A stretch of 42,284 nucleotides of DNA, taken from IMG/VR virus record IMGVR_UViG_2675903409_000014. One strand, 5' to 3'. The position numbers and the translations under genes are program-made. The notes below the pieces were generated by a model, which saw only the letters and a list, made by a program, of their open reading frames with translations, was not told where the DNA came from and searched no databases. Within the stretch, counting starts at the first letter, position 1; the number at the start of each line of letters is the position of its first letter. The DNA is from a virus. Its lineage: Duplodnaviria > Heunggongvirae > Uroviricota > Caudoviricetes. Positions 5,846-41,255 of this stretch are shown piece by piece.

Positions 5846-6016
5846 TTAAAGTTCATGTGCCATCTGGTCTTTTTCGGCACAAGCTTCACTGCAATATTTT
5901 CTCGGTTCGTCTTTTGATAAAATCCCGTGCATGAAGTGAAGCATTCTTTCAATAGCTTTGCTTTCTTCAACGTCTTTTTTGCAAAGGTGGTAAGCACATT
6001 TTATTTTCTTAGTCAT
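5846..6016 (-). CDS. ydaE: YdaE-like small Cys-rich protein (56 aa; absent from ORF track, under 60 aa)
   Basis: Hand translation [56 protein letters not shown]; ATG overlaps kilR stop (ATGA). Confidence 0.6.
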   Translation of the reverse strand: MTKKIKCAYHLCKKDVEESKAIERMLHFMHGILSKDEPRKYCSEACAEKDQMAHEL

Positions 6017-6237
6017 CACCATGACTCCGCCTTTACAGGTAAACCATCACGACCGAGGAAGACTTTAATCATGCGGTCAGTAATGCATGTTTTTGTGGTC
6101 AGGTTACGAATATATAGTTTTCGCTTTTTAATATTGTTTGCCGAGGCAATATATGTCCGGCCTTCATGAAGAACATAATCGCCAGGAGTCACACACTGAC
6201 GTGGTATTTCATCAGTTCCGAAGTGATGTGCAATCAT
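6016..6237 (-). CDS. kilR: KilR (FtsZ-targeting killing protein)
   Basis: 73 aa [32 protein letters not shown]... matches recalled KilR; SD ggag 7 nt upstream. Confidence 0.85.
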
Positions 6238-6678
6238 AATTATCTCCATTTTTACAAATGAACTTTGTTGATGCGGTGCCTGGTGCCTCCAGGTGACTGC
6301 AACCAGTTAACAATTACAGTCGGCTTTCCCACCCAAACCAATAAGGACTAACATGACTTTTAACTGTGCCACGTGCGCTTAGCCGCATTCACCGCATCAC
6401 AAAATTCACTTTAAAAAGGGCGGACATCAGCCGAACTTCAAGAAAAAAACTGATGCCGCCAGGACTACACACAGCAATGTCGTTATTTACAACCGGAGGC
6501 GCACTCCCACCATTTAAATTTAACAGACAAGACCGACTCTTTATGGATATCGGAAATGCGCCTTCGTGTTGTGCCCGGTTTTATTTCACCACCTCCGGGC
6601 TTCGGTGGTCTCGGCTATACCCCTACAGCGAGAGCTTGTGTTAACATTTCAATACCCTTACAGTTGAGAGTTATTGAT

Positions 6679-7167
6679 ATGTTGGATGTATTTACTCCAT
6701 TGTTGAAACTTTTTGCTAACGAGCCACTCGAAATACTTATGTATACGATTATCATTTTTGGTCTCACTCTCTGGCTGATACCGAAAGAGTTTACTGTCGC
6801 ATTCAATGCTTATACTGAAATACCTTGGCTCTTTCAGATTATCGTTTTTGCCTTTTCTTTCGTGGTCGCCATTTCCTTCTCAAGATTGCGAGCACATATT
6901 CAAAAGCATTATTCATTACTACCAGAGCAACGAGTATTGCTTCGTTTATCTGAGAAAGAAATCGCTGTATTTAAAGATTTCCTTAAAACAGGAAATCTTA
7001 TTATCACTTCTCCTTGCCGTAACCCGGTTATGAAAAAATTAGAACGGAAGGGCATCATTCAACATCAGAGTGATAGCGCAAACTGTTCTTATTATCTCGT
7101 CACCGAAAAATACTCCCATTTTATGAAGTTATTCTGGAACAGCAGGAGTAGACGTTTTAATCGTTAG
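6679..7167 (+). CDS. sieB: SieB superinfection exclusion protein
   Basis: 162 aa from MLDVFTPLLKLFANEPLEILMYTIIIFGLTLWLIP...; membrane-like N-terminus; matches recalled SieB. Confidence 0.85.
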   Translation: MLDVFTPLLKLFANEPLEILMYTIIIFGLTLWLIPKEFTVAFNAYTEIPWLFQIIVFAFSFVVAISFSRLRAHIQKHYSLLPEQRVLLRLSEKEIAVFKDFLKTGNLIITSPCRNPVMKKLERKGIIQHQSDSANCSYYLVTEKYSHFMKLFWNSRSRRFNR

Positions 7168-7319
7168 CTTACTGTGTGCTTCTCCAACCATCGGCGCGCA
7201 CCAGTTTCGGTTTTAAATGTTTTGCTTTTGGTATACGTCATGGCAGTGAACGTTCCATCCTGGTTGGGGAACACGCCGCACACCAGGGATTCGTTGTTGC
7301 CGAGGTCGATTTTTTGCAT
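7164..7319 (-). CDS. ydaF: YdaF-like small protein (51 aa; absent from ORF track)
   Basis: Hand translation MQKIDLGNNESLVCGVFPNQDGTFTAMTYTKSKTFKTETGARRWLEKHTVS; convergent 4-nt overlap with sieB. Confidence 0.6.
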   Translation of the reverse strand: MQKIDLGNNESLVCGVFPNQDGTFTAMTYTKSKTFKTETGARRWLEKHTVS

Positions 7320-7329
7320 TTTGCGAATC

Positions 7330-7464
7330 TCACATCTTGTTGCTGTGTATAGCGACTTCTGCCTGCCAGAGATCCCAGTCGTTGCTGCGTAAAGCCTGCA
7401 CAGCCTGGTTGTAAGTGATACCGCAACAATCCATCAAATACTGAACTACTTCGTAATGCACCAT
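7330..7464 (-). CDS. ydaG: YdaG-like small protein (44 aa)
   Basis: MVHYEVVQYLMDCCGITYNQAVQALRSNDWDLWQAEVAIHSNKM within the 60-aa ORF 7330..7512. Confidence 0.6.
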   Translation of the reverse strand: MVHYEVVQYLMDCCGITYNQAVQALRSNDWDLWQAEVAIHSNKM

Positions 7465-7624
7465 CTTATCTCTCCCCTTAACGCCGGGTGGCGGAACTGA
7501 AACCTGCTGCACTGCAAAATCTGAACCCTGCCGTCATGTTCATACGCCTCGGGCTGGCTACTTAACCCCTGACCACTGCCTGGTAACTCGAAGTATTGCC
7601 CTGCGTTCTGTGGGGCGGGGTGGG

Positions 7625-7680
7625 TTGGTAGGTATATAATGTACTTTGTGTTCATTGATGTAAAGTACTATAAGTACATT
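7625..7680 (-). promoter_or_regulatory. Candidate early leftward promoter/operator cluster (TGTACT / AGTACT / AGTACA motifs)
   Basis: Between racR 3' end and ydaG start; TGTACT at 7640-7645, AGTACT at 7664-7669, AGTACA at 7673-7678; TTTACA-like and AT-rich hexamers on minus strand. Confidence 0.35.
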
Positions 7681-7754
7681 TTGTGTGTAAAAAAATGAGA
7701 TGGGATAAAGTGAAGCACAAACCCGGAGGGGGACGCTACCGGATTTATGCTGGT

Positions 7755-8192
7755 TTAAGAGGCTTTTTGTTTTTTCTTTCGTGCTAGCTCTTCGTAAATT
7801 GCATTGTACTTCTGTTTTTTCTCCTCAAGAGTTTTTAAAAGTTCATCTGTCTCACTGTCAGGGAGCTCGTCCAGAAGGTCAATGATGATTTTTTGTCTTG
7901 GATTTAACTCCTGATAGAAACGTACCTGTCCACTTTCTTCTGTATCCTCTCCCAAAAGATAGGTTGGTGTTGTTCCAATGAGTGTTGCTAATTCCCTTAA
8001 TTTCTCTCGGCGAGGAATTGTTTCGCCATTAAACCATTTGCTAACCGCTTTTGGTGTTAATTTCATTCGACGGGCAATTTCTGCCTGCCTTCCATGTTGT
8101 TCATAACCAGCGTTTTCACAGGCTAGCGCAAGCCTACTGGCGAACTCTTTACGCGCTTTATCTTCATGAACCATAAGTTCAATGATATTCAC
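7755..8192 (-). CDS. racR: RacR prophage repressor (HTH)
   Basis: 145-aa ORF MNIIELMVHEDKARKEFASRLALACENAGY...; divergent from ydaS-ydaT as in Rac; first codon is GTG, alternative ATG at 8174. Confidence 0.8.
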   Translation of the reverse strand: MNIIELMVHEDKARKEFASRLALACENAGYEQHGRQAEIARRMKLTPKAVSKWFNGETIPRREKLRELATLIGTTPTYLLGEDTEESGQVRFYQELNPRQKIIIDLLDELPDSETDELLKTLEEKKQKYNAIYEELARKKKQKAS

Positions 8193-8253
8193 TCTTGAAT
8201 GTACTGTCAGTTCTGTTATAGCATGTACTCAAAGTTCACATTGTGAGGGTGAT
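8193..8253. promoter_or_regulatory. racR / ydaS divergent control region with repeated TGTACT motifs
   Basis: 61-bp divergent intergenic region; TGTACT at 8200-8205 and 8224-8229, same hexamer as the cluster near 7640-7678. Confidence 0.4.
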
Positions 8254-8508
8254 ATGAACCAGAAAACACTTGAAGATGTAATCAAAACTGTTCGCGTTTC
8301 TGTTGTGGCCGACGTTTGTGGTGTCAGCCAAAGAGCAATCTACAAATGGATGGATAACGGAAAATTGCCTCGCACAGAATATACCGGCGAAACAAATTAC
8401 GCTGAAAAAATCGCTCATGCATCAAACGGATTATTTTCTGCTGATGTAATTTTAACTATTGGCAGAAATAAAACTACTACGAAAAAGCTGATGGGAGTTG
8501 ATTCATGA
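8254..8508 (+). CDS. ydaS: YdaS-like HTH protein (Cro-position)
   Basis: MNQKTLEDVIKTVRVSVVADVCGVSQRAIYKWMDNGKLPR...; SD gaggg upstream; alternative upstream start 8182 would overlap racR. Confidence 0.7.
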   Translation: MNQKTLEDVIKTVRVSVVADVCGVSQRAIYKWMDNGKLPRTEYTGETNYAEKIAHASNGLFSADVILTIGRNKTTTKKLMGVDS

Positions 8509-8927
8509 AAATCAAGCATGAGCACATCGAGTCAGTGTTGTTAGCCCTGGCAGCCGAAAAAGGGCAGGCATGGGTAGCCAATGCCATTACTGAAGAATAT
8601 CTGCGCCAGGGGGGCGGCGAATTGCCCCTGGTACCAGGCAAGGACTGGAATAATCAGCAGAATATCTATCACCGTTGGTTGAAAGGTGAAACGAAAACGC
8701 AAAGAGAAAAAATTCAGAAGCTGATCCCAGCAATTCTGGCAATCCTTCCGCGCGAGCTGCGTCACCGACTCTGCATCTTCGATACCCTGGAACGCCGTGC
8801 ATTACTGGCGGCGCAGGAAGCGTTAAGTACGGCAATTGATGCGCATGATGATGCAGTCCAAGCCGTTTACCGGAAAGCGCATTTCAGCGGCGGCGGGTCT
8901 TCCGACGATTCTGTCATTGTTCATTAA
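8505..8927 (+). CDS. ydaT: YdaT
   Basis: 140 aa MKIKHEHIESVLLALAAEKGQAWVANAITEEYL...; ATGA overlap with ydaS stop. Confidence 0.8.
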   Translation: MKIKHEHIESVLLALAAEKGQAWVANAITEEYLRQGGGELPLVPGKDWNNQQNIYHRWLKGETKTQREKIQKLIPAILAILPRELRHRLCIFDTLERRALLAAQEALSTAIDAHDDAVQAVYRKAHFSGGGSSDDSVIVH

Positions 8928-8990: not shown

Positions 8991-9810
8991 ATGGCCGCAT
9001 TACCATACATGCAACTGTACATAGCTGATTACCTGGCTGACACCATGCATTTGTCAGCAGAGGAGCATGGTGCGTATTTGTTGCTGATGTTCAATTACTG
9101 GCAAACAGGAAAGCCAATACCTAAAAACAGGCTGGCAAAAATTGCCCGTCTNNNNNNNNNNNNNNNNNNNNNNNNNNNNNNNNNNNNNNNNNNNNNNNNN
9201 NNNNNNNNNNNNNNNNNNNNNNNNNNNNNNNNNNNNNNNNNNNNNNNNNNNNNNNNNNNNNNNNNNNNNNNNNNNNNNNNNNNNNNNNNNNNNNNNNNNN
9301 NNNNNNNNNNNNNNNNNNNNNNNNNNNNNNNNNNNNNNNNNNNNNNNNNNNNNNNNNNNNNNNNNNNNNNNNNNNNNNNNNNNNNNNNNNNNNNNNNNNN
9401 NNNNNGAACATGATGTCAACACAAAGGCAACTAATAAAGATACAGATAAAGATCTAAAAACAGATCCCCCCCTAAATCCCCCCCGGGGGAATCGAGGTGT
9501 CAAAAAGTTTGACCCTCTGGATATTGCTTTGCCGAACTGGATTTCTGTCTCGCTTTGGCGTGAGTGGGTTGAATTTCGCCAGGCATTGCGAAAACCGATT
9601 CGAACGGAGCAGGGCGCTAACGGGGCGATACGGGAGCTGGAAAAATTCCGCCAGCAGGGTTTTTCACCTGAGCAGGTGATTCGACACAGCATCGCCAATG
9701 AATACCAGGGCTTGTTCGCGCCGAAAGGTGTTCGACCTGAGACGTTACTCCGACAGGTTAACACCGTCTCGTTACCGGATAGTGCGATCCCGCCAGGCTT
9801 CAGGGGGTAA
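8991..9810 (+). CDS. ydaU: YdaU-like replication protein (interrupted by N-run 9152-9405)
   Basis: N-terminal [40 protein letters not shown]... and C-terminal ...[36 protein letters not shown]...; frame break coincides with N-run. Confidence 0.75.
9152..9405. other. Undetermined sequence (N-run) inside ydaU
   Basis: 254 N. Confidence 1.
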
Positions 9811-11561: not shown

Positions 11562-12248
11562 ATGACCCCAATAAACATATTTATGACAGTTGCTGATTTC
11601 AAACGGCCCAAATTGGAGCTCCCAAACGGGGCAAACAAACTACTACTGCACTCTTGCTGTGCTCCATGTTCCGGTGAGGTGATGGAGGCGCTTCAGGCCT
11701 CGGGAATCGACTACACCATCTTTTTCTACAACCCGAACATTCATCCTCAGAAAGAGTATTTAATTCGTAAGGATGAGAATATTCGCTTTGCTGAACAACA
11801 CGGCGTGCCGTTTATTGATGCTGATTACGACACAGACAACTGGTTTGAACGAGCCAAAGGAATGGAATGGGAGCCCGAACGAGGGATCCGTTGCACCATG
11901 TGTTTTGACATGCGTTTTGAGCGGACAGCGCTGTACGCCGCTGAAAATGGTTTCAGTGTGATCAGCAGTTCACTGGGCATTTCACGCTGGAAAAATATGC
12001 AGCAGGTTAACGACTGTGGGCGGCGAGCCGTCGCGCATTATCCGGGCATGGTGTACTGGGATTATAACTGGCGCAAGCAGGGCGGCTCGTCCCGTATGAT
12101 TGAAATCAGCAAGCGCGAAAAATTCTATCAGCAGGAATATTGTGGCTGTGTGTATTCTCTGCGCGATACCAATCTACACCGCAAATCTCAGGGACGCCCT
12201 CTTATCAAAATTGGTCAACTCCACTACGGTAAAGAAGAGAAGGAGTGA
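11562..12248 (+). CDS. QueH/DUF208-like protein (epoxyqueuosine reductase family)
   Basis: 228 aa with [19 protein letters not shown] and QEYCGCVYS motifs recalled as hallmarks of DUF208/QueH. Confidence 0.7.
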
Positions 12249-12270: not shown

Positions 12271-12520
12271 NNNNNNNNNNNNNNNNNNNNNNNNNNNNNN
12301 NNNNNNNNNNNNNNNNNNNNNNNNNNNNNNNNNNNNNNNNNNNNNNNNNNNNNNNNNNNNNNNNNNNNNNNNNNNNNNNNNNNNNNNNNNNNNNNNNNNN
12401 NNNNNNNNNNNNNNNNNNNNNNNNNNNNNNNNNNNNNNNNNNNNNNNNNNNNNNNNNNNNNNNNNNNNNNNNNNNNNNNNNNNNNNNNNNNNNNNNNNNN
12501 NNNNNNNNNNNNNNNNNNNN
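12271..12520. other. Undetermined sequence (N-run) after QueH-like gene
   Basis: 250 N. Confidence 1.
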
Positions 12521-13195: not shown

Positions 13196-13444
13196 ATGGC
13201 ACATATACAACTGGTCAAACAAACCTCTTCCGGATTACTTCTCCCGGCGACGCCGGAGAGTTGCGATTTTCTGCATCAAATCAAAATAGGTGAGTGGATA
13301 CACGCAGACTTTAAGCGTGTGTGTAACTACGCATTCCACAAGCGTTTTTTCAAACTCCTGCAACTGGGTTTCGATTACTGGACTCCGGTCGGTGGGGCGA
13401 TCACGCCTCGCGAACGAAAACTGGTGTCCGGTTTCGTTGATTAC
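13196..13444 (+). CDS. nin-region protein, partial copy (3' part masked by N-run), paralog of 18863..19462
   Basis: MAHIQLVKQTSSGLLLPATPESCDFLHQIKIGEWIHADFKRV...; about 97 percent nt identity to 18863-19111. Confidence 0.55.
13196..13444 (+). repeat. Direct repeat copy A (about 249 bp visible, truncated by N-run)
   Basis: About 8 mismatches in 249 nt versus 18863-19111. Confidence 0.8.
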
Positions 13445-13694
13445 NNNNNNNNNNNNNNNNNNNNNNNNNNNNNNNNNNNNNNNNNNNNNNNNNNNNNNNN
13501 NNNNNNNNNNNNNNNNNNNNNNNNNNNNNNNNNNNNNNNNNNNNNNNNNNNNNNNNNNNNNNNNNNNNNNNNNNNNNNNNNNNNNNNNNNNNNNNNNNNN
13601 NNNNNNNNNNNNNNNNNNNNNNNNNNNNNNNNNNNNNNNNNNNNNNNNNNNNNNNNNNNNNNNNNNNNNNNNNNNNNNNNNNNNNNNNNNNNNN
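13445..13694. other. Undetermined sequence (N-run) inside nin-region repeat gene copy A
   Basis: 250 N. Confidence 1.
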
Positions 13695-13718
13695 AATTTT
13701 TACCGGGAGGAAATTTTT

Positions 13719-14480
13719 ATGGAGACTGTTTTTGACGCACTGAAAGCAATGGGAAAAGCCACATCCATAGAACTTGCTGCGCGACTTGATATCAGTCGTG
13801 AAGAAGTGCTGAACGAACTATGGGAACTGAAAAAAGCTGGTTTCGTTGATAAAAGCGCGTACACCTGGCGTGTGGCTGATAACAACGTTCAGCAGGAACA
13901 GCCAATGCAGGCAGAACTGCCGGAAGAAACCACCACGGCAACTGTAGTGAAAATCTCAGAGTGCGATTTAACCGCGACGATTGAACAACGCGGACCACAA
14001 ACGGCGGATGAACTGGCTACGCTGTTCGGTACAACATCCCGCAAAGTTGCTTCAACGCTGGCAATGGCAATCAGCAAAGGACGCCTGATTCGCGTAAACC
14101 AGAACAGTAAATTTCGTTACTGCATGCCGGGCGATAATTTACCAGCAGAGCCGAAAGCTGCATCGGTAGCGGAAACTGATGGTAAAGCCTTTCCTCAGCC
14201 AGCCGGTGTTGCGTTACCAGTACAGGAAGCGGCAACACAGGAAGATATTAAAACAGAAACTGTGGCGGACATTGTGCAGTCGCTGCCATCGTTTACTGAA
14301 ACGCAAGCGGATGACCTAGTTTTACCATCGCTGCATATGGCAAACCGCGAACTGCGTCGGGCGAAAAATCATGTCCAGAAGTGGGAGCGAGTCTGCGCCG
14401 CGCTGCGGGAGCTGAACAAGCACCGGGATATTGTCCGACAGATTGTCGATTCCTCCAGTCGTATTGTGTCGGAAAAGTGA
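13719..14480 (+). CDS. Hypothetical protein, probable winged-helix N-terminus and acidic linker
   Basis: 253 aa [45 protein letters not shown]...; SD gggagg upstream; first codon right after N-run. Confidence 0.65.
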
Positions 14481-14912: not shown

Positions 14913-15050
14913 ACGTTACTAGATCAAAGAGCATTAGTTCATATGTAAATTGACATTTTTCTGGCACAGGGGAGAGCTAGCGTGGTTGTCCGCTTTGTGC
15001 CAATAGCGGACATTGCTGGCTCATGGTATGTTAGTTTAAGGAGGCAGGTT

Positions 15051-16073
15051 ATGCCCTGTATTTCGCTGTGGTATAATAGTTGCGCAATTGATACAAGGGA
15101 GCGTTACATCGTGAAAATTGTTTTCGAGGTTAATGGAAAGAAAGTTCCACTAAAATCTTTAAAATACATAAGCAAAAAAGATCAACTCGAAGTAATGAAA
15201 AACTGGTTCTTTGAAAACTTTGAAGATCCGGCAAATGCTTGTCCGTATGAAAGTAGAGAAGGTGGCTATGCTTACATATATGGCGGGCCGTATGATGCGA
15301 GCGAAGAACTACAATCCATCTTCGGTCAATATGTTAAATCTGAGTATATTGAGGAATTAGTAGATGAATTACAAACACAATGTTTTGACTGGTCTGGAAA
15401 CTCAAATAATATAGATGATTGGTACGATGATGATATCTACGACGCTGTAACGTCTTCCGGTAATCCGTATTTAAAATTCATTGATAATATCGATAAAATA
15501 AAAAAACTTGCAAAAGATAAAACTGAACAACAGCAAAAAAACCACTTGCTTAGTTTGCTCTACACGAATGTTATTACAGCTTTGGAAACGCTTTATGTTG
15601 AGCTATTCATTAATTCTATAGAGAAAGATGATGTCTACATAGCCAATTGTATAGAAAAAGGTAAGACTGAATTTAAAGTAAGCAAAGATATTGCTGCGTT
15701 GCCTTTCAAGGGTGAACCCATCGAGAAAATTAGGGGAGAGCTAATCAGGTCAATCAAGGAACACTTGATCAGTGCAAGCTGGCATAGCACTAAAAAGGTA
15801 ATCGACCGCTATGAAGCTACATTCGATATAAAAGTACAAAAAGACTGTCCGATAGAAGCTATTGAATTGGCAACCCTCAATCGAAATCACTTAGTGCATC
15901 GTGGTGGAAAGGATAAAGAAGGGAACCTCGTAGTGATTACAGACCAGGATCTTGAAACGCTGATTGAAAATGCATCGAACCTGGCAATTATGCTCTACAA
16001 CAGTTTAAATGTAGCAACGAATAAAACCACCATTTTGCAACCAGATGACAAACCGTTCATTCATGAATTTTAA
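15051..16073 (+). CDS. Uncharacterized protein A of A+T-rich cassette; C-terminal HEPN-like Rx4H motif
   Basis: Strong SD taaggagg 6-7 nt before ATG 15051; alternative GTG 15111 preceded by TGgTATAAT and aagggag; A+T-rich; motif LNRNHLVHRG. Confidence 0.65.
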   Translation: MPCISLWYNSCAIDTRERYIVKIVFEVNGKKVPLKSLKYISKKDQLEVMKNWFFENFEDPANACPYESREGGYAYIYGGPYDASEELQSIFGQYVKSEYIEELVDELQTQCFDWSGNSNNIDDWYDDDIYDAVTSSGNPYLKFIDNIDKIKKLAKDKTEQQQKNHLLSLLYTNVITALETLYVELFINSIEKDDVYIANCIEKGKTEFKVSKDIAALPFKGEPIEKIRGELIRSIKEHLISASWHSTKKVIDRYEATFDIKVQKDCPIEAIELATLNRNHLVHRGGKDKEGNLVVITDQDLETLIENASNLAIMLYNSLNVATNKTTILQPDDKPFIHEF

Positions 16074-16088
16074 TAGCGCAGGTCATAC

Positions 16089-17090
16089 ATGGATATTCGC
16101 ACACGAAAGACAAAATTTTTAGAGTCGTTAGATTCAACTGAAGTGATACGCAAAGCAGTAAGTCTCGCTATAGATTGCATTATTGATAATCATAATAGTA
16201 ATGAAGATACCCCCTTAGTTATTACCAGCTATGATGATCTCTGTAGAATCCAGGTGCTAAATTATGTACAGGAGTTTTGCGAAGCTGCATTCCCTGATAT
16301 GGATGAATATTACTTTAGTCCTAACATACTTCGCATCAACGGCAAGACTAGTGAAGAAGCTTGTATTAACTTAATTAAACTCTTAAGAAGTACAAAAGGC
16401 ATGCTATTCTGGTCCGATGCCCCATCGTGGTTCGCTAGCCTCCCCGACGGATTATTCCATGTTGTTAACATTGATCAAAAAATCGTTACTCGCGGCCTTA
16501 ATAAGAAAAACTCTAAGCCGACAATAATCAATAAAGATTACAGTGTAGATACACTACTATCAGAGCTATTTTTGAATGGCGCACACATGGAGCAACCCAA
16601 CGTACACAACGTTTCTGAGGGAAACATGAAGTTCTATGATGAATGCCATGCTGGATTAATCAGACCAATACCCGCTCCAATAGGCGCGTCATACGATGAA
16701 GAGATCACAATTAATTCTCCAGATTGGCAAAAGCTCGCGTGTGTAGCTTTACGCCGCTATCAGTCGAAGGAATGTCATGACGGAATGCAATGGGATACAA
16801 CCGATCATGGTTGGACTGATGTAATCGCGTATCCATTCGTCGAAGAAATACAATCAATGGATAATAGTGGTTATCGACAATGTTTAGTTGGGCTGGTCAC
16901 AATAAACAATTCAAATGCAAATTCTCCGTACCTATCTACCGTTTGGATACATCCATTTTATCGCAGGAGAGGGTTATTAAGTAAGTTATGGCCAAAATTA
17001 CAAGAGTTATATGGAAGTAACTTCGAAATTGAGCGACCTAATGAAAATATGAAAGCATTTCTGAAAAGTGCGAAACACGCAGATTACTAA
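16089..17090 (+). CDS. Uncharacterized protein B of A+T-rich cassette; C-terminal GNAT-like motif
   Basis: 333-aa ORF 15 nt after gene A; VWIHPFYRRRGLLSKLWPKL resembles GNAT acetyl-CoA motif A. Confidence 0.7.
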   Translation: MDIRTRKTKFLESLDSTEVIRKAVSLAIDCIIDNHNSNEDTPLVITSYDDLCRIQVLNYVQEFCEAAFPDMDEYYFSPNILRINGKTSEEACINLIKLLRSTKGMLFWSDAPSWFASLPDGLFHVVNIDQKIVTRGLNKKNSKPTIINKDYSVDTLLSELFLNGAHMEQPNVHNVSEGNMKFYDECHAGLIRPIPAPIGASYDEEITINSPDWQKLACVALRRYQSKECHDGMQWDTTDHGWTDVIAYPFVEEIQSMDNSGYRQCLVGLVTINNSNANSPYLSTVWIHPFYRRRGLLSKLWPKLQELYGSNFEIERPNENMKAFLKSAKHADY

Positions 17091-18049: not shown

Positions 18050-18862
18050 AACCACCTCCTCCAAAACATGCATTAAAAATGCATCTTTTGGAGGGTTATG
18101 TCAAGCTGTTATGAAACACATAATTGATATGTTGATTAGAGGAGAAGATAGAATAAATATGGTTGTTTTTCGTATAACTATTTGTTTTACTTTTAGTTTA
18201 TGCATTCTGTGTGTTAGGAATAAGTTATTAAAGTTTAATCAAAAAATCTCGATGTAGTCCACATAGATTACTGTTACTGAACCTTATTGTGTGTATTAGT
18301 TGTGTTCTGAAATTTCAGCTTAATTATTTATGATGTATTTTTTAACGATAAATATTTTCCCAGGATACCTTTACTGTGTATATAAATAAATTATATACGC
18401 ATAAATAATGTAAAGGCGTCCTTTTAGATATATCTTATCAAATGTTAATGACTTGAGTGGGAAATATGATTCCAGCAACTTATCATGTGGCTACTTTATA
18501 AAAATAATGCCCATATAAAACAACAAGCGAAAAGGATTACGGATAAAAAAGGAGCGAGATGTGCGAACTTGTTATTTTCCATGTTTAACCACCTTAAATA
18601 ATTGATGATGACGGGATGATTGCATCTGTAATGCTTTTATTGAAATGTTATGATAAAAAAGAACTTTTGCATAACATTAAAATGTAATTTATCTAATCGT
18701 TTTTAATAATAAGTGTCGTATTTCTATCCTTGTACCAGCTATTTGATATGTAGTGTTTGTTCATGCTATGTGGGGCTTTACACCATAGCCAGTTTATTTA
18801 TACTTTATTCGTCAGCCTGAACAACTGGCATCTGCTGCGCTGCGCCATCGAGAGATTGAGAA

Positions 18863-19462: not shown

Positions 19463-19752
19463 TGGTGAATTTACGTAAAGCGGCTAAAGGCCAGATGTGC
19501 CAGATCAGAATCCCTGGCTACTGCAATCACAATCCCGAAACCTCTGTGCTGGCGCATTACAGGCTGGCGGGGACGTGCGGAACAGCGACAAAACCACATG
19601 ATATGCAGGCGGCGATAGCCTGTAGCTCATGCCACGATCTAATCGACGGGCGGGTAAAAACCAGCGATTACACCAAAGAAGAATTGCGCCTGATGCATGC
19701 TGAAGGGGTTTTTCGCACACAAGAAATCTGGAGAAAGAAAGGTCATTTATGA
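19462..19752 (+). CDS. YbcO-like DUF1364 Cys-rich putative nuclease
   Basis: 96 aa MVNLRKAAKGQMCQIRIPGYCNHNPETSVLAHYRLAGTCGTATKPHDMQAAIACSSCHDLIDGR...; pattern as recalled for DLP12 YbcO. Confidence 0.75.
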   Translation: MVNLRKAAKGQMCQIRIPGYCNHNPETSVLAHYRLAGTCGTATKPHDMQAAIACSSCHDLIDGRVKTSDYTKEELRLMHAEGVFRTQEIWRKKGHL

Positions 19753-20273
19753 TTTACCCAACGAATACAGNNNNNNNNNNNNNNNNNNNNNNNNNNNNNN
19801 NNNNNNNNNNNNNNNNNNNNNNNNNNNNNNNNNNNNNNNNNNNNNNNNNNNNNNNNNNNNNNNNNNNNNNNNNNNNNNNNNNNNNNNNNNNNNNNNNNNN
19901 NNNNNNNNNNNNNNNNNNNNNNNNNNNNNNNNNNNNNNNNNNNNNNNNNNNNNNNNNNNNNNNNNNNNNNNNNNNNNNNNNNNNNNNNNNNNNNNNNNNN
20001 NNNNNNNNNNNNNNNNNNNNTGATGCAGAGGCGTTATGTATTGATCGAGTCATAAGTGAGGTGCTGGCAGAGCATCCAGGATTGATTTGCATTCTCCGGC
20101 AACGCTATGAAGGGCGGGGGATGACTAAGCGCAAAATGGCTGAATTGCTAAATGATGCACACCCAGAGTGGTGTTTTAGCACATGCGAAAAACGGATTGC
20201 TAATTGGTTAGCTGTTGCTGAGTATGCCCTATATATTCCCATGCGTGAATCATTTGCTGAGAAAATGGCTTGA
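19749..20273 (+). CDS. Late-gene antiterminator Q-like (interrupted by N-run 19771-20020)
   Basis: Position immediately upstream of late leader and terminator; ATGA overlap with previous stop; C-terminus ...QRYEGRGMTKRKMAELLNDAHPEWCF...; family by position mainly. Confidence 0.6.
   Translation: MIYPTNTXXXXXXXXXXXXXXXXXXXXXXXXXXXXXXXXXXXXXXXXXXXXXXXXXXXXXXXXXXXXXXXXXXXXXXXXXXXXXXXXXXXXDAEALCIDRVISEVLAEHPGLICILRQRYEGRGMTKRKMAELLNDAHPEWCFSTCEKRIANWLAVAEYALYIPMRESFAEKMA
19771..20020. other. Undetermined sequence (N-run) inside Q-like gene
   Basis: 250 N. Confidence 1.
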
Positions 20274-20353: not shown

Positions 20354-20381
20354 AAAAAAACCGCTTAATGCGGTTTTTTTA
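20354..20381 (+). terminator. tR'-like rho-independent terminator of the late leader
   Basis: A-run, stem ACCGC, loop TTAAT, stem GCGGT, then T7; about 80 nt after the Q-like stop. Confidence 0.8.
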
Positions 20382-20698
20382 CGTCAGGAAAGCAGGGGAG
20401 AATGCTGCTAGTTGGGCAACTGGTCTTTCTGCTCCAAATTATAACAGAGACCAGTTATAGTTTCGGTGCTGTGTTTTTTTTACAATATTGTGATAACACA
20501 TTGCTGGCGGGAGTTTTGATATTTCTTGGCAGGGGCTGATGATGCGTTATCCTGATGTCGTCAACTCATATAAAATGAGATGAGAGATCATTGCAGGGTG
20601 GTTTGTAATTCGCTGTTTAGCGGGACAATATGTTGTCTGATACAAGACACCCGACGCCTCAGATTACTATAATAAAGACGAAGCATCCTTTGTATTGA

Positions 20699-20726
20699 CC
20701 AACCGCCTGTTTAGGCGGTTCTTTTT
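20699..20726 (+). terminator. Second rho-independent terminator downstream of tR'
   Basis: AACCGCC-tgtttag-GGCGGTT followed by CTTTTT. Confidence 0.55.
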
Positions 20727-21317
20727 GGGCTGGTTTATTGTATGCCAAATGATTATTAAAAAGGTTGTGTTAATAACAAGATCCGAAATAATATGCCTGC
20801 ATATTTTTATCTTGCTTATATTCTGCATATTGTGCATAGCAGGCTCATCCCTGCAATCAAAACTGTATGATGAGTATTTTTTGTTTTCCTTTTTTCCAGT
20901 CATCTGATGATGACCTGCTTCTTTTTAATCCGGATCGACATCAGTTTTTTAAGATAATTCCTGCGAGTTATATGCATAAATGCCACAAACTCCGCATTTT
21001 ATGTGGTTGGGAGTTGCCGGGCGCGCAGTGAGTTTGCTAAGAAAACTCCTGCATGGTGAATCCCCCTGTGCGGTGGGGTGATACCATTAACCTTTTCTGT
21101 CGCCGACAGGTATCACGAACATTTTGTTCACCGGGAGGCACCCGGCACCATGCACTTCAATAGATTCTCTCCACATTATGGATATTCTTTCAGAATATCC
21201 CACGCAGACTTTGTGTAAATGTTAACAAATGTGCGTTTTATTTGATCTGATTCGCTGTTTGAGCGTCCAAAACAACGGTATATATAATCCTTTACTATAT
21301 GACATATGTGAGGAAAA

Positions 21318-21746
21318 ATGGGTTTTCGTAGCGCATCAATTCTTACGTTGATTATTAGTGGGATTATTATCGGGTGCACTGATGCTGTATCGACAAATTA
21401 TCATGACCGTACATCATATTACTCCGATAAAGCAATAGAGACACAGTATGTGAGTTCATCTGAACGTACTTCTGATGTTAGTGAGGATATCCGTCTGTAT
21501 GCCCATCAAATCAAGAGCGCCATCGAAAAACAGTTCGGGGATGCGAGTAAGTATTCAGGAAAAGAGTGTACACTGAGAATGCATATGGCCCCGAATGGCC
21601 TTCTACTGGAGGTTAAAAGAGAAAGTGGAGACCTCGATTTATGTCGTGAAGCGATGAATGCGATAAAGAATGCTGATATACCTGCCCCCCCTTCGCCGGA
21701 AGTATATAAAGTATTTCAAAATGGGGTGCTGGATTTTAAACCCTGA
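21318..21746 (+). CDS. Lipoprotein with TolA C-terminal domain (TolA-III)-like fold, copy 1
   Basis: Signal peptide and lipobox IIGC; mature part YAHQIKSAIEKQFGDASKYSGKECTLRMHMAPNGLLLEVKRESGDLDLCREAMNAIKNADIPAPPSPEVYKVFQNGVLDFKP parallels recalled E. coli TolA C-terminus; TATATAAT about 25 nt upstream. Confidence 0.8.
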   Translation: MGFRSASILTLIISGIIIGCTDAVSTNYHDRTSYYSDKAIETQYVSSSERTSDVSEDIRLYAHQIKSAIEKQFGDASKYSGKECTLRMHMAPNGLLLEVKRESGDLDLCREAMNAIKNADIPAPPSPEVYKVFQNGVLDFKP

Positions 21747-21896
21747 TATTTATTGTTTTGTAATAAACGGTTTCGGCTTAGGTTTGTTCTGACACAGCTA
21801 CGGCACTGAGCTAAATTTAGCGGATAGTCAGCTCTGAGCCAGTGGCGGACGTAACAACTACTATTGCTGAGATTTTAATGGATTGAGGAGCAAGAA

Positions 21897-22292
21897 GTGG
21901 GATTAAAGAAAATCGTTATGTTGACTTTTTGGGTCGGTTTTGTTGCGGGATGCACACCTTTACACCCTTCAGATTGCCACAAAACTACTGCTACAGGTAG
22001 TTGCAGTTCAGGACGCTGGGATGATCAGGATGAATGGGGGGCGCAAGCGCGGGGAATCAGAGCTGCAATTAATGCCAAACTTGATGAGCCGCATAACTGG
22101 AAAGGGAAAAAATGCAGGTTGCATATGGAATTCTCTCAGGATGGCACGGCGTTAAAAATATCTACCAGTAACGGTGATAAAGCCTATTGCGAAGCGATAA
22201 AGTCCGCAGCTCATAAAGCCAAATTTCCGGCCTTCAACAATCCGGAAGTCTACAGAGATTTTCAGAAATCTGGCTTTGACATGCGAGGTTAG
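21897..22292 (+). CDS. Lipoprotein with TolA-III-like domain, copy 2 (diverged paralog)
   Basis: GTG start with SD gaggag; lipobox VAGC; ...GKKCRLHMEFSQDGTALKISTSNGDKAYCEAIKSAAHKAKFPAFNNPEVYRDFQ follows the same TolA-III pattern. Confidence 0.75.
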   Translation: MGLKKIVMLTFWVGFVAGCTPLHPSDCHKTTATGSCSSGRWDDQDEWGAQARGIRAAINAKLDEPHNWKGKKCRLHMEFSQDGTALKISTSNGDKAYCEAIKSAAHKAKFPAFNNPEVYRDFQKSGFDMRG

Positions 22293-22417
22293 CTCTTCAA
22301 TTACTATATCTCATTCATAGCAAACTGACAGATTTGATGATGTTCTATATACGAAACCTGTGATGTCAAGTCTGAGCTAATACAAATAAACATAATATCA
22401 GAGAAATACATTTTATT

Positions 22418-22440
22418 AGCTCGCTACGGCGAGCTTTTTA
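22418..22440 (+). terminator. Rho-independent terminator upstream of lysis genes
   Basis: AGCTCGC-tacg-GCGAGCT followed by TTTTA. Confidence 0.7.
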
Positions 22441-22543
22441 TATTGCATCGTCTCCAGCATATATATCAATTAAGGCTCTGATTGATGTGTCTGAAAGCCT
22501 ACACATAATAACTATGCCATCCGTTCCGTGCGGAGGTGAGGCT

Positions 22544-22759
22544 ATGAAATCCATGGACAAAATTTCAACAGGCATTGCCTACGGCACCTCCGCAGGCAGT
22601 GCTGGCTACTGGTTTTTACAGTTGCTCGATAGAGTAACTCCGTCACAGTGGGCTGCAATCGGTGTGCTGGGTAGTCTGGTATTTGGCCTGCTGACGTACC
22701 TGACAAACCTTTATTTCAAGATTAAAGAAGATAAGCGCAAGGCTGCGAGAGGTGAATAA
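22544..22759 (+). CDS. Holin, phage 21 S21 / EssD-like pinholin
   Basis: 71 aa [71 protein letters not shown]; SD ggaggtga; upstream in-frame Met in the 90-aa ORF. Confidence 0.85.
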
Positions 22760-23208
22760 TGCCTCCATCATTACGAAAAGTCGTTGCTGCTGCTATTGGT
22801 GGCGGAGCAATTGCTATAGCATCAGTGTTAATCACTGGCCCAAGTGGTAACGATGGTCTGGAAGGTGTCAGCTACATACCATACAAAGATATTGTTGGTG
22901 TATGGACTGTATGTCACGGGCATACNNNNNNNNNNNNNNNNNNNNNNNNNNNNNNNNNNNNNNNNNNNNNNNNNNNNNNNNNNNNNNNNNNNNNNNNNNN
23001 NNNNNNNNNNNNNNNNNNNNNNNNNNNNNNNNNNNNNNNNNNNNNNNNNNNNNNNNNNNNNNNNNNNNNNNNNNNNNNNNNNNNNNNNNNNNNNNNNNNN
23101 NNNNNNNNNNNNNNNNNNNNNNNNNNNNNNNNNNNNNNNNNNNNNNNNNNNNNNNNNNNNNNNNNTCGTGAGATTGAGCGTGAAGTCTGTTTGTGGGGGC
23201 AGCAATGA
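22759..23208 (+). CDS. SAR endolysin, lysozyme (interrupted by N-run 22926-23165)
   Basis: N-terminus [55 protein letters not shown] is a Gly/Ala-rich signal-anchor-release domain; C-terminus [13 protein letters not shown]; TAATG overlap with holin. Confidence 0.85.
22926..23165. other. Undetermined sequence (N-run) inside endolysin gene
   Basis: 240 N. Confidence 1.
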
Positions 23209-25401: not shown

Positions 25402-26190
25402 ATGAGCGAGAAATTAAAGATAGTCTATCGCCCATTACAAGAATTGTCACCGTATGCGCACAACGCCAGGACGCACAGTACTGAGCAGGTGGCACAACTG
25501 GTAGAAAGTATTAAGCAATTCGGCTGGACTAATCCGGTGCTGATTGACGAAAAGGGCGAAATTATTGCGGGTCACGGTCGTGTTATGGCGGCTGAAATGC
25601 TCAAAATGGATTCTGTTCCGGTCATTGTTCTGTCTGGCCTGACGGATGAGCAGAAAAAGGCGTACCGCCTGGCAGATAATCGCCTGCCGATGAATGCTGG
25701 CTGGGATGAAGATCTGTTGCGGATGGAGCTGTCGGACCTAATCAATGCTGATTTTGATGTCTCCCTGACAGGCTTCATCCCGGCAGAAATTGATGAACTG
25801 TTGACGGATGTTTTGCCCGGTACAGGAAATGAGGAGGAGCCGTATACGACGAAAATTGATACGCCTGTTTATGAGCCGTCAGGCGGTAAACCGGATATCA
25901 GTGAACTGTACGACGATACGAAAACTCAGGAGCTGATCAGCCGGATACGTTCGGCGTCCCTTGATCCTGATATTGAGAAATTCCTCCTGTGTGCAGCAGA
26001 ACGTCACACGGTGTTTAATTTCAGCAGAATTGCGGACTATTACGCTCATGCCCCCGCTGAAATTCAGTGCCTTTTCGAGGAGTCGGCGCTGGTGATCATT
26101 GATTATCAGCAGGCTATTGAAAATGGATTTGTCCGAATGACGCAGCGCATGGTGGAGATCATGCATGGCGGGGAGGAGGAATATGCGTGA
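25402..26190 (+). CDS. ynaK: ParB-like nuclease domain protein (full-length YnaK homolog)
   Basis: 262 aa MSEKLKIVYRPLQELSPYAHNARTHSTEQVAQLVESIKQFGWTNPVLIDEKGEIIAGHGR...; N-terminus matches recalled K-12 YnaK fragment. Confidence 0.8.
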   Translation: MSEKLKIVYRPLQELSPYAHNARTHSTEQVAQLVESIKQFGWTNPVLIDEKGEIIAGHGRVMAAEMLKMDSVPVIVLSGLTDEQKKAYRLADNRLPMNAGWDEDLLRMELSDLINADFDVSLTGFIPAEIDELLTDVLPGTGNEEEPYTTKIDTPVYEPSGGKPDISELYDDTKTQELISRIRSASLDPDIEKFLLCAAERHTVFNFSRIADYYAHAPAEIQCLFEESALVIIDYQQAIENGFVRMTQRMVEIMHGGEEEYA

Positions 26191-27115
26191 TGATTTTTGC
26201 GCCTTTATTCTGACTCACGGGCGACCGGACAAAGTTCTGACTTACCGGACGTTGCGTCGTGCTGGCTATACCGGGAAAATTTTTATCGTTGTTGATGATG
26301 AAGATAAGACACGGCATCAGTACATGGCTGAATTTGGTGAACAGGTGCTGGTATTTTCCAAAGCCGATATTGCTAGTCGTTTTGACGAAGCCGATAATTT
26401 TAGTGACCGCCGCTCAATTTTTTACGCCCGTAATGCCTGTTTCGACCAGGCAAAACTGGTCGGGTGTAAATACTTCATTCAGCTCGATGATGATTATCAC
26501 GAGTTCCAGTTTCGGGTGGATCGCAACTATGACCAGGCCTATTTCCCGATAAGGAAACTGGATGAGATCCTTTCTGAAATGCTTGCGTACTACGAATCAA
26601 TACCTGCTCTTTCCATCGCTATGTCGCAGGGCGGGGATTTTCTTGGTGACAATGGCGGCCATGCTTCGTGGGTGAAACGCAAGGCAATGAACAGCTTTAT
26701 CTGTTCGGTTGATCGACCGTTCTCATTCATGGGGCGCATTAACGAGGATGTGAATACGTACACGAATCTCGGTCGCTGTGGTGAATTGTTTATGACGATC
26801 GGTGCTGTCCAGTTAGGGCAGAAACAGACGCAGAAAAACAGCGGCGGAATGACCGAGCTGTATCTGGATTCCGGAACCTACGTTAAAAGTTTTTACTCCG
26901 TCATGTATGCGCCGTCGTGCGTAAAAATCTCACTTATGGGTGCCAGTCATAAACGCATTCACCATCAGGTCACCTGGAACAACGCTGCAGTAAAAATCCT
27001 TCACGAAAAATACAGGAAGAAGACACCCTGCATATCAATGGGGGTGACAAATGATTCCGTATTCGAAAGTCGAGTCTCTGGCAGCGTGCCGGATGACTGC
27101 ACAACAAATCGCTGA
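26183..27115 (+). CDS. GT-A fold (family 2-like) glycosyltransferase-like protein with DxD motif
   Basis: FCAFILTHGRP...KIFIVVDDEDKT...YARNACFDQAKLVGCKYFIQLDDDY follows the GT2 N-terminal pattern; SD ggaggagg; ATG overlaps ynaK stop; no C-terminal TM helices. Confidence 0.6.
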   Translation: MRDDFCAFILTHGRPDKVLTYRTLRRAGYTGKIFIVVDDEDKTRHQYMAEFGEQVLVFSKADIASRFDEADNFSDRRSIFYARNACFDQAKLVGCKYFIQLDDDYHEFQFRVDRNYDQAYFPIRKLDEILSEMLAYYESIPALSIAMSQGGDFLGDNGGHASWVKRKAMNSFICSVDRPFSFMGRINEDVNTYTNLGRCGELFMTIGAVQLGQKQTQKNSGGMTELYLDSGTYVKSFYSVMYAPSCVKISLMGASHKRIHHQVTWNNAAVKILHEKYRKKTPCISMGVTNDSVFESRVSGSVPDDCTTNR

Positions 27116-27305: not shown

Positions 27306-28384
27306 ATGAGCAGACCGGACTGGGGGGCGTTGCAGCAGGAGTATATTGCTGAATACACCCGCTCCGGTATATCTCCGGTGGCATGGTGTGAAGCAAGGGG
27401 ACTGAATTACGCAACAGCCCGTCGTTACATCAAAAAAACTCCGAAAAATGCGCAGACAGAAATGTGCAAANNNNNNNNNNNNNNNNNNNNNNNNNNNNNN
27501 NNNNNNNNNNNNNNNNNNNNNNNNNNNNNNNNNNNNNNNNNNNNNNNNNNNNNNNNNNNNNNNNNNNNNNNNNNNNNNNNNNNNNNNNNNNNNNNNNNNN
27601 NNNNNNNNNNNNNNNNNNNNNNNNNNNNNNNNNNNNNNNNNNNNNNNNNNNNNNNNNNNNNNNNNNNNNNNNNNNNNNNNNNNNNNNNNNNNNNNNNNNN
27701 NNNAGCAACGCCAGTCGTATGCTTAGAAATGCCAGGGTTTTTCGCGCTATCAGCTACTTCCGCAATCAGTACCAGAAACGCTATACCGCAGACCTGGATT
27801 TACTAGTGAGTCAGTTGATGGCTATTGTCCTGGCCGACCCCAATCAGCTTGCACAATTTCGCCGTGTTAACTGCCGTTATTGCTGGGGCGAGAATCATCT
27901 CTACCAGTGGCGCGATATAGCAGAATTCGACAAGGCAGCGGCGCAGGCTTCCAGAGATGGCAAACCCGAACCGGAATATGGAGGCCTCGGCTTTGTTGAT
28001 AACGCCATACCCAATCCGGACTGCCCGAAGTGCTGCGGTGAGGGAACGGGACAGCTTTATATGGCTGATACCACTCTGCTTGATGGGGATGCGCGGCAAT
28101 TATATGCAGGGGCAAAATTCGGAAAATTCGGCGTTGAGATCCTGCTGGAGGATAAGGCTGCCGCCCGGCGTGAATTGTTGCGTTTGTTTTCTGCTGGCGG
28201 GGCTTTATGTGCAGATAAGCGGCTACGGGAACTGGAAATTGAACGGCGCAGAATGGAAAACCAGAAGCTGCGCAAAGAGATCGAAACGGTGGAAGATAAT
28301 GAACATCCCCAGCCTGTGGCGATCAATATTAATGTGGTTGATGCCAGAGTAAGGAGTGATGAAGATGATCTCTCCGACGCTTAA
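27306..28384 (+). CDS. Terminase small subunit (interrupted by N-run 27470-27703)
   Basis: N-terminal HTH-like GISPVAWCEARGLNYATARRYIKK; C-terminal part ends 29 nt inside terminase large subunit start; frame break at N-run. Confidence 0.65.
27470..27703. other. Undetermined sequence (N-run) inside terminase small subunit gene
   Basis: 234 N. Confidence 1.
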
Positions 28385-41000: not shown

Positions 41001-41255
41001 GCTGGACCGGAAGCCATTATGCCATTAACACGAACTTCCGATGGTTCTCTTGGTGTCAGAGCTATTAATAGTAAAAGTGGTAATGGAGGCGGAGATATTA
41101 CCTATGCCCCTGTATACCAAATCACTATTCAAAATGACGGCCAGAATGGAGAGATTGGCCCTCAGGCAATAAAAGCACTTATGGGGATGGTTGATCAGCG
41201 GGTGCAGGGCAATCTGTTAAATATGCGACGTGATGGGGGAATGTTAAGTGGCTAA
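38022..41255 (+). CDS. Tail tape measure protein
   Basis: 1077 aa; internally repetitive coiled-coil N-terminal half; hydrophobic central segment; immediately upstream of M and L. Confidence 0.85.

Follow-up and report, generated by a model that had tools for sequence, protein, structure and literature searches.

Why should a Rac-type prophage carry, between its late antiterminator gene and its lysis genes, two adjacent genes for small proteins that resemble the C-terminal domain of the host protein TolA? The locus that raises this question lies in a 42,284-nt prophage window (IMG/VR virus record IMGVR_UViG_2675903409_000014; the window is the whole stretch of DNA examined, and coordinates are counted from its first letter). 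Its two open reading frames (ORFs), referred to here as copy 1 and copy 2, were found on the plus strand exactly where an earlier note on this DNA had placed them. That note regarded the products as tandem lipoproteins that mimic TolA domain III (TolA-III), which serves both group A colicins and filamentous phages as their common point of entry and is the working end of the Tol-Pal system. On the evidence of alignments and models, both products are predicted to be lipoproteins with a genuine TolA-III fold, and the most likely role for them, which we put forward tentatively, would be that of decoys for molecules docking on host TolA-III, with a plausible case for copy 1 and a weaker one for copy 2.

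TolA-III homology and fold of the two proteins

Both proteins matched Pfam family PF06519 above its gathering cut-off of 25 bits (copy 1, 82.6 bits, E 2.4e-23; copy 2, 54.6 bits, E 1.3e-14), and phmmer comparison with the solved TolA-III chains 1s62, 3qdp, 2x9a and 1tol gave E-values of 5e-28 for copy 1 and 5e-9 for copy 2. The copy 1 domain aligned end to end with residues 334–421 of E. coli TolA, and over the 88 aligned residues copy 1 was identical to TolA at 52 (59%) and copy 2 at 27 (31%). The AlphaFold2 (AF2) models exceeded a predicted local distance difference test (pLDDT) score of 90 for residues 54–140 of copy 1 and 46–130 of copy 2, with low confidence for the N-terminal parts of both. 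In Foldseek comparisons, copy 1 superposed on 2x9a_B, the complex of TolA-III with the g3p of phage If1, with a root-mean-square deviation (rmsd) of 0.6 Å and a template modelling (TM) score of 0.96, and copy 2 on 3qdp with 1.2 Å and 0.92; the TM score of 0.55 for copy 1 against 1tol (rmsd 0.7 Å) was obtained with a 156-residue fusion of M13 g3p and TolA as target. The likeness to the TolA C-terminal domain noticed in the letters was thus recovered by profile, phmmer and structure comparison alike, and the alignment and model check suggested with it returned the TolA-III fold for both copies.

The proteins share with E. coli TolA-III (residues ~325–421; PDB 1tol, 1s62, 2x9a, 3qdp, 3qdr) the same α/β fold, a disulfide pair and a C-terminal β3 strand. 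The domain cysteines (TolA Cys363/Cys388) correspond to Cys84/Cys109 in copy 1 and Cys73/Cys98 in copy 2 and are invariant in the family alignments, and the DFKP ending attributed to copy 1 was indeed present (...VLDFKP, compared with ...PLDFKP in TolA). They differ from TolA in lacking domain I, the inner-membrane anchor, and the long helical domain II, in having a lipoprotein signal peptide instead, and in being encoded in a prophage late region rather than in the tolQRA–tolB–pal operon; since the signal peptide replaces the N-terminal parts of TolA, they cannot couple to TolQ–TolR. The full-length TolA profiles reflect this architecture. Of the 387 positions of NF007065 (cut-off 213 bits), copy 1 covered 293–386 and copy 2 304–382, and both failed (107.8 and 53.7 bits); with TIGR02794 (cut-off 59.45) copy 1 passed at 75.6 through its C-terminal part alone and copy 2 failed at 47.2.

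Copy 1 and copy 2 were identical to each other at only 25 of the 88 domain residues (28%), a distance similar to that between copy 2 and TolA, and so they are old paralogues and not the outcome of a recent tandem duplication, which was considered and discarded on this count. The adjacency described by the earlier note stands, its mimicry does not: judged by these alignments, the two are true TolA-III homologues, anciently diverged, and not convergent mimics.

Signal peptides, lipoboxes and selection

The N-terminus of copy 1 reads MGFRSASILTLIISGIIIGC-T and that of copy 2 MGLKKIVMLTFWVGFVAGC-T, each consisting of a short charged n-region, a hydrophobic core and a lipobox of the form [LVI][ASTVI][GAS]C. 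The signal peptides and the lipoboxes IIGC and VAGC claimed for them could both be read in the sequence, with Thr and not Asp as the +2 residue. Among near-full-length family members retrieved by a word-indexed search (at least 120 aa for copy 1), the lipobox was kept in 23 of the 30 relatives of copy 1 and in 109 of the 120 relatives of copy 2, and Asp occurred at +2 in none of the scanned relatives of either copy (30 and 120, respectively). The usual +2 residues across both families were Ala, Thr and Ser, and the copy-2 family lipoboxes were VAGC or AAGC followed by Ala, Ser or Thr. In E. coli, lipoproteins with a residue other than Asp at +2 enter the Lol pathway and reach the outer membrane; after lipidation, copy 1 and copy 2 would accordingly be expected on the inner face of that membrane. 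The RefSeq entry for copy 2 begins at ATG 21918, seven codons late, and has the charged start of the signal peptide cut off; in the IncK plasmid homologue, an ATG is aligned with the GTG of copy 2 at 21897.

Copy 2 alone adds a conserved Cys-rich N-terminal segment to the TolA-III domain. The mature N-terminus of its family, C-x-PLHPS-x-CHKTTATGSCSSGRWDDQDEWG, was almost invariant across Escherichia, Citrobacter, Enterobacter, Klebsiella and Serratia (conserved segment CxPLHPSxCHKTTATGSCSSGRWDDQDEWG). Ratios of nonsynonymous to synonymous substitution (dN/dS), estimated by the Nei–Gojobori method, were 0.04–0.13 for the mature protein in the copy-2 family and 0.01–0.08 for the first 30 mature codons of copy 2 (21951–22040); because this segment is near-invariant and so strongly constrained, it is not a passive linker. 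The AF2 model contained a small hairpin between the two extra cysteines of copy 2, at low to moderate confidence. The segment may provide a second binding function, for example for TolB, and may bear a faint likeness to the TolB-box motifs of colicins. The copy-1 family evolves faster than the copy-2 family: against a 66%-identical variant, copy 1 gave a dN/dS of 0.36 over its whole length, 0.25 for the domain and 0.49 for the N-terminal third (codons 1–53, signal peptide and linker), and copy-1 variants at 65–91% identity shared the same architecture.

Ligand-docking sites and the proposed decoy function

According to Ridley and Lakey (PMC4339652), g3p-N1 touches helix α2 of TolA (334–349) and adds a strand to β3; the same β3 edge serves colicin N and the TolB N-terminus, and the substitutions D418P and K420P abolish the colicin N and TolB interactions and give a full tol phenotype. 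Colicin A docks on the opposite face, at 375-LLDIKP-380, and strand addition to β3 is mainly backbone-bonded and tolerates beta-forming substitutions (PMC4339652). In the alignment, copy 1 was identical to TolA at 11 of the 16 residues of α2 (TolA GADINNYAGQIKSAIE) and copy 2, which has QDEWGAQARGIRAAIN, at 4/16. At β3 (412–421; TolA FKNAPLDFKP) copy 1 reads FQNGVLDFKP (7/10), with TolA L417, D418, F419 and K420 all retained, and copy 2 reads FQKSGFDMRG (2/10). The colicin A site (375–380, LLDIKP) is represented by LLEVKR in copy 1 (3/6) and ALKIST in copy 2 (2/6). By this comparison copy 1 retains the features tied by published mutagenesis to the docking of TolB, colicin N and g3p-N1 and looks able to bind known TolA-III partners, and copy 2 may have a different set of ligands; divergence at β3 is nevertheless not proof of lost binding, since strand addition hardly needs side chains.

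A decoy would work as follows. Each lipoprotein would hold a free TolA-III domain in the outer periplasm, unlinked from the TolQ–TolR motor, at the place where the translocation domains of colicins and the tips of g3p enter, and would capture them unproductively. The targets would be the translocation domains of group A (TolA-dependent) colicins and related bacteriocins, and filamentous-phage g3p tips; a molecule bound to a decoy that cannot be energised would get no further, and the lysogen would for that reason become tolerant. Copy 1 would be the better candidate because it is close to TolA and has kept the docking strand for TolB, colicin N and g3p; copy 2 would probably have a different ligand range. 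Competition with TolA for the TolB N-terminus could be a side effect or a second role. The fold, the lipoprotein signals, the genomic slot, the linkage of the two genes, their distribution and the selection on them are results of the analysis; we infer the outer-membrane location, the expression in lysogens and every binding event and phenotype in this scheme.

Laboratory export of TolA-III, g3p-N1 or colicin T-domains to the periplasm leads to colicin tolerance and a tol phenotype, and in the work of Levengood-Freyermuth, Click and Webster in 1993 artificially exported TolA-III reportedly rendered E. coli both colicin-tolerant and leaky. Exported TolA-III is in this respect a direct laboratory precedent for a decoy effect. 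The prophage proteins resemble such constructs in presenting a free periplasmic TolA-III that is uncoupled from the motor; they differ from them in being natural genes with diverged sequences, in being predicted to be lipid-anchored rather than soluble, and in being probably expressed at a lower level.

Genomic setting and expression of the pair

The window is a Rac-type prophage that begins at the integrase gene and shares long collinear blocks (92–99.9% identity) with the ttcA prophage of strain ECCHD184; a segment at ~8.5–18.5 kb is largely unlike ECCHD184, with a single 526-bp match at 87.6%. Genes for DUF1367, a YbcO-like nuclease and a DUF1133/Q-like protein are followed by about 1 kb without convincing ORFs, then by copy 1 and copy 2, and thereafter by a P21-type holin, lysozyme, Rz with embedded Rz1, and trkG (Table 1). 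The Q-like gene, read from its copy in public locus L001, matched PF06576 (E 2.5e-107) and reached 26.1 bits with Phage_antitermQ against a cut-off of 26 bits, so the slot between Q and the lysis genes named in the earlier note is borne out on both sides. Seven runs of N (233–255 nt each; 3596–3850, 9152–9405, 12271–12520, 13445–13694, 19771–20020, 22926–23165 and 27471–27703) mask parts of the window, among them portions of the Q-like and lysozyme genes, and the neighbours were read from an identical public locus.

Table 1. Features of the copy 1/copy 2 locus, with positions in the 42,284-nt window.
Feature	Position	Strand	Basis
Q-like late-gene antiterminator (DUF1133), partly N-masked	19749..20273	+	identical gene in public locus L001
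STnc100-family prophage small RNA (sRNA) element	21021..21207	+	Rfam RF02076, 86.6 bits, E 4e-18 (gathering score 47 bits)
Sigma-70-like promoter candidate TTGAGC-18 nt-TATAAT	21259..21288	+	consensus scan, 10/12 matches; 30 nt 5' of copy 1
Copy 1 Shine-Dalgarno GAGG	21310..21313	+	direct reading; ATG 4 nt downstream
Copy 1, predicted prolipoprotein with TolA-III domain, 142 aa	21318..21746	+	ORF, profile matches, AF2 model
Copy 1 signal peptide and lipobox IIGC (Cys20; +2 Thr)	21318..21377	+	sequence
Copy 1 linker, residues 21–53, predicted disordered, fast evolving	21378..21476	+	pLDDT <50
Copy 1 TolA-III domain, residues 54–142, Cys84/Cys109, terminal β3 VLDFKP	21477..21743	+	profile, structure, alignment
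Copy 2 Shine-Dalgarno GAGGAG	21885..21890	+	direct reading; GTG 6 nt downstream
Copy 2, predicted prolipoprotein with diverged TolA-III domain, 131 aa, GTG start	21897..22292	+	ORF, profile matches, AF2 model
Copy 2 signal peptide and lipobox VAGC (Cys19; +2 Thr)	21897..21953	+	sequence
Copy 2 mature N-terminal segment TPLHPSDCHKTTATGSCSSGRWDDQDE, two extra Cys	21954..22034	+	near-invariance across genera
Copy 2 TolA-III domain, residues 44–131, Cys73/Cys98	22026..22289	+	profile, structure
Terminator-like hairpin AGCTCGC-TACG-GCGAGCT and T run	22418..22445	+	between copy 2 and holin gene
P21-type holin	22544..22759	+	within block 21127–22760, 99% common to phage mEp460

The sigma70-like promoter reported near 21282 is present as a consensus match lying inside the block that is 99% common to phage mEp460; the AT-rich region around it held 11 such matches where 6.5 were expected, and the candidate was not conserved 5' of divergent copy-1 variants, whose upstream regions are not homologous to that of the window. 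Terminators had also been said to flank the pair. The downstream one was found (hairpin 22418–22435, -13 kcal/mol, z -2.9), and the terminator scan gave none directly upstream of copy 1, where the nearest sites were 20899–20914 and 20701–20720, and no terminator-like site between copy 1 and copy 2. The promoter and terminator layout around the pair is, as far as can be read from the letters, that expected of a moron and suggests expression in lysogens; the pair is inserted between conserved modules and is absent from related phages, which hold other cargo in this slot. Late expression is expected as well, because polymerase modified by Q would transcribe copy 1 and copy 2 before it reached the lysis genes.

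An STnc100-family element sits between the Q-like gene and copy 1 and may give a short transcript near the late promoter; STnc100 is a prophage sRNA family related to the PasD sRNAs (bioRxiv 10.64898/2026.05.13.724894). At 20644–20727 (+) a promoter-like AAGACA-18 nt-TATAAT is followed about 30 nt on by a strong terminator-like hairpin, and the two could be the late promoter and its terminator. A further hairpin with flanking A and T runs was seen by eye at ~20355–20385, right after the Q-like ORF, and was not listed in the scan. The sRNA-17 of an mEp460-like prophage (PMC7719688) was considered as evidence of expression of the locus and set aside, its probe and primer sequences being absent from the window.

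This setting bears on a different role, in which the tethered TolA-III domains bind the TolB N-terminus at the outer membrane and damp Tol-Pal. Expressed late under Q, they would loosen the outer membrane, releasing more vesicles or aiding lysis, and the chromosomal and plasmid copies described below would tune envelope behaviour. The two genes open the late operon and in every phage context are directly followed by those for holin, lysozyme and Rz/Rz1, the module common to two phage backbones takes in the holin gene, and the β3 site kept in copy 1 is also used by TolB. Periplasmic TolA-III is known to cause leakiness and vesiculation, which likewise favours this role. Set against these points, the outer membrane is already handled by the spanin Rz/Rz1, a terminator lies between copy 2 and the holin gene, and copy-2 relatives are under purifying selection in chromosomes and plasmids, where lysis does not take place and a standing Tol defect would be costly; the affinity of TolA for TolB is also weak (~40 µM; PMC4339652). 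Since decoy and Tol-Pal roles use the same β3 edge, sequence analysis cannot separate them, and we regard modulation of Tol-Pal as rather unlikely, though it is the main rival of the decoy role.

Distribution of the pair and of its relatives

The 1251-bp locus was present in 774 of 5426 complete E. coli genomes (14%; counted where at least 80% of its length was covered), nearly always at ≥99% identity, and the exact copy 1 and copy 2 proteins each occurred on at least 1000 contigs. Among 50,697 deposited phage genomes only that of mEp460_ev081 has the locus; there the pair is preceded by a different Q gene and followed by the holin that it also has in the window, and block 21127–22760 is common to both at 99%. 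In the best 80 IMG/VR loci, copy 2 was found at 99% identity in 80/80 and copy 1 lay 150 nt upstream in 79/80, about 45 of the loci being on a Rac-type Q backbone and about 28 on an mEp460-type one. As the two genes were linked in 79 of 80 loci and on two Q backbones, the pair travels as a unit. Copy-1 variants without copy 2 turned up on another 23 viral contigs, and also in draft genomes. These solo variants are 70–90% identical to the variant protein P0028 and ~70–74% identical to copy 1 over the aligned part; they have a PF03589-type Q gene on one side and nanS-p, holin and lysozyme genes on the other, which is the stx position in Stx phages. A search of viral contigs with the distant family member P0179 gave no match.

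These data bear on the explanation implied by part of the public annotation, namely that copy 1 is a piece of a broken tolA and the pair the decaying cargo of a cryptic prophage. PGAP has called copy 1 a tolA pseudogene 'missing N-terminus', and Rac is often defective. The copy 1 ORF is however complete, and neither its Shine-Dalgarno sequence nor its signal peptide nor its lipobox comes from tolA; copy-1 variants keep the architecture, both copies have dN/dS values below 1 (0.25 in the copy 1 domain), and the protein is found unchanged on very many contigs and in the viable phage mEp460. The reading of copy 1 as a tolA fragment or pseudogene was rejected on the signal peptide and lipobox, the conserved variants and dN/dS, and non-functional remnants are a highly improbable account of the pair.

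Copy-2 relatives were found on 607 plasmids and, in every case examined, lay directly after nikA–nikB of an I-complex plasmid (IncK, IncB/O, IncI-gamma and IncZ; for example L003 8036–8431, L004 7995–8426, L014 5995–6426 and L015 5995–6426). The homology (~88% nucleotide identity) is confined to the ribosome-binding site and ORF, window positions 21862–22296. The reference IncI1 plasmids R64 and ColIb-P9 (L018, L019) have no copy-2 relative, and trbC follows nikB at once. Chromosomal relatives with 78–89% protein identity were present as single genes in Enterobacter, Citrobacter, Klebsiella and Serratia; neighbourhoods differed between genera and no conserved operon partner was found. In one enterobacterial chromosomal context (L011–L013, ~6001–8736) the relative lies between nrdG and GmrSD-type and HEPN genes, which looks like a small defence island. 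Occurring as a single gene in unrelated chromosomal and plasmid neighbourhoods, the copy-2 protein would seem to work without a dedicated partner gene and to benefit hosts outside the lytic cycle.

An exhaustive profile-free search of 1.84 billion cluster representatives returned 130 hits, of which 67 were short (105–175 aa) and 52 of these 67 had a lipobox; the short representatives that were looked up came from Enterobacterales and were named by homology only. The pair is thus part of a broader, uncharacterised class of short lipoproteins with a TolA-III domain, whose members are encoded by phages, plasmids and chromosomes alike.

The breadth of this class is among the reasons to consider that the fold has been reused for another partner by one or both proteins, copy 2 above all, such as another envelope protein, the peptidoglycan machinery, or a plasmid or phage component; if so, the resemblance to TolA would say little about function. 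Copy 2 is only 31% identical to TolA-III, matches it poorly at the docking elements and has an invariant extra segment, and TonB-type C-terminal domains have the same fold and other partners. Copy 1, on the other hand, is very near TolA-III in sequence and model, and strand addition depends little on side chains. The combination in copy 2 of divergence, extension, strong purifying selection and solo life suggests that this protein has a particular partner, not necessarily one of the TolA ligands; for the pair as a whole, reuse of the fold appears unlikely.

The distribution also offers support for a decoy role, since the genes are found on three kinds of element, all of which profit when the host survives. 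I-complex plasmids make pili used by phage If1, and the If1 g3p has been crystallised on TolA-III (PDB 2x9a); a limit to this link is that the classical If1 host plasmids R64 and ColIb-P9 are those without a copy-2 relative. A broader proposal is possible but doubtful: that in Enterobacterales the end of TolA that binds ligands has been taken over more than once by mobile elements and anchored at the outer membrane, where it would serve by itself as an immunity protein, a 'co-receptor decoy'. On lambdoid prophages, such a protein would shield the lysogen from TolA-dependent colicins and filamentous phages, and might shield the induced cell too, in which pore-forming colicins, by depolarising the membrane, would trigger the holin early; on I-complex plasmids, the copy-2 relative after the relaxase gene would shield pilus-bearing hosts from If1-type phages.

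Several observations weigh against a decoy role. The side chains at the g3p, colicin N, TolB and colicin A sites are mostly lost in copy 2, and its conserved N-terminal extension points to some other specific partner. No diversifying selection, as a sign of an arms race, was seen in the dN/dS values of either copy. Expression may be mainly late and Q-dependent, the promoter being a consensus match that is unconserved in the variants, and this would fit a role in the lytic cycle better than protection of the lysogen; a free TolA-III could also be costly through disturbance of Tol-Pal. PADLOC gave no match for the pair at E-values up to 1, and a full-text literature search found no functional study of these proteins.

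Relation to annotated proteins and known systems

In RefSeq, copy 2 is named 'cell envelope integrity TolA C-terminal domain-containing protein' and has the GO term 'bacteriocin transport'; copy 1, where it is not called a pseudogene, is annotated 'cell envelope integrity protein TolA', probably as a result of its C-terminal match alone passing TIGR02794. The pair is annotated in RefSeq NZ_CP033250.1 (2184660–2185466), and PHROG 5772 contains both proteins under the label 'unknown function'. These RefSeq 'tolA family protein' entries and PHROG 5772 are the same proteins as those described here, and none of them gives a function, a location or a ligand. The databases thus already note the domain resemblance, under homology-derived names, but not the biology of the proteins; the names 'TolA', 'tolA pseudogene' and 'bacteriocin transport' are misleading.

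Among the closest known systems are the phage exclusion lipoproteins Llp of T5 and Cor of phi80, N15 and HK022, which acts on FhuA, both of them blocking routes of entry, and moron lipoproteins such as Bor of lambda, all likewise small phage-borne outer-membrane lipoproteins carried as accessory cargo. Llp and Cor need no partner in acting on a part of the host envelope that invaders use, as is predicted for the present pair, to which none of the three is related in sequence; the proposed imitation of a periplasmic co-receptor domain also differs from the masking of a surface receptor. The pair belongs to the accessory lipoprotein cargo of lambdoid phages, made in this instance from a co-receptor domain that was captured from the host, and if it does act as a decoy it would represent a simple new kind of immunity. 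The genes are common, being found, beyond the E. coli genomes counted above, on hundreds of I-complex resistance plasmids and in Enterobacter, Klebsiella and Citrobacter chromosomes. A decoy role would matter for the interpretation of colicin and phage sensitivity among natural isolates and for attempts to combat resistance plasmids with colicins and pilus-specific phages, and it would change the use of K-12 as a model, the Rac prophage of K-12 having lost these genes. Were Tol-Pal tuning the true role, the pair would be a handle on envelope stability and vesicle production.

Other features of the prophage

The Rac-type prophage of the window may be closer to complete than cryptic Rac prophages usually are, because its tape-measure ORF (38022–41255, +; 1077 aa) is intact, unlike the ECCHD184 counterpart, which is interrupted by an IS5-like element. 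The SieB superinfection-exclusion gene (6556–7167, +; PF14163, E 3e-31) is also intact, whereas that of ECCHD184 is a pseudogene with an internal stop. In the early region unlike the ECCHD184 Rac, 11562–12248 and 13290–14480 (+) encode a homologue of the epoxyqueuosine reductase QueH (E 2e-65), an unusual cargo for a lambdoid prophage, and a DUF1627 protein. Two adjacent ORFs of 363 and 333 aa (14982–17090, +) had weak matches only (HEPN/RES N-terminal domain; GNAT) and could be a toxin or defence pair; they are followed by an AT-rich stretch at ~18050–18800 with 28–31% G+C. Between trkG and the terminase genes, 25402–27115 (+) encodes a ParB-N-domain protein and then a TET-associated glycosyltransferase (PF20691, E 4e-34), which may form a DNA hypermodification module.

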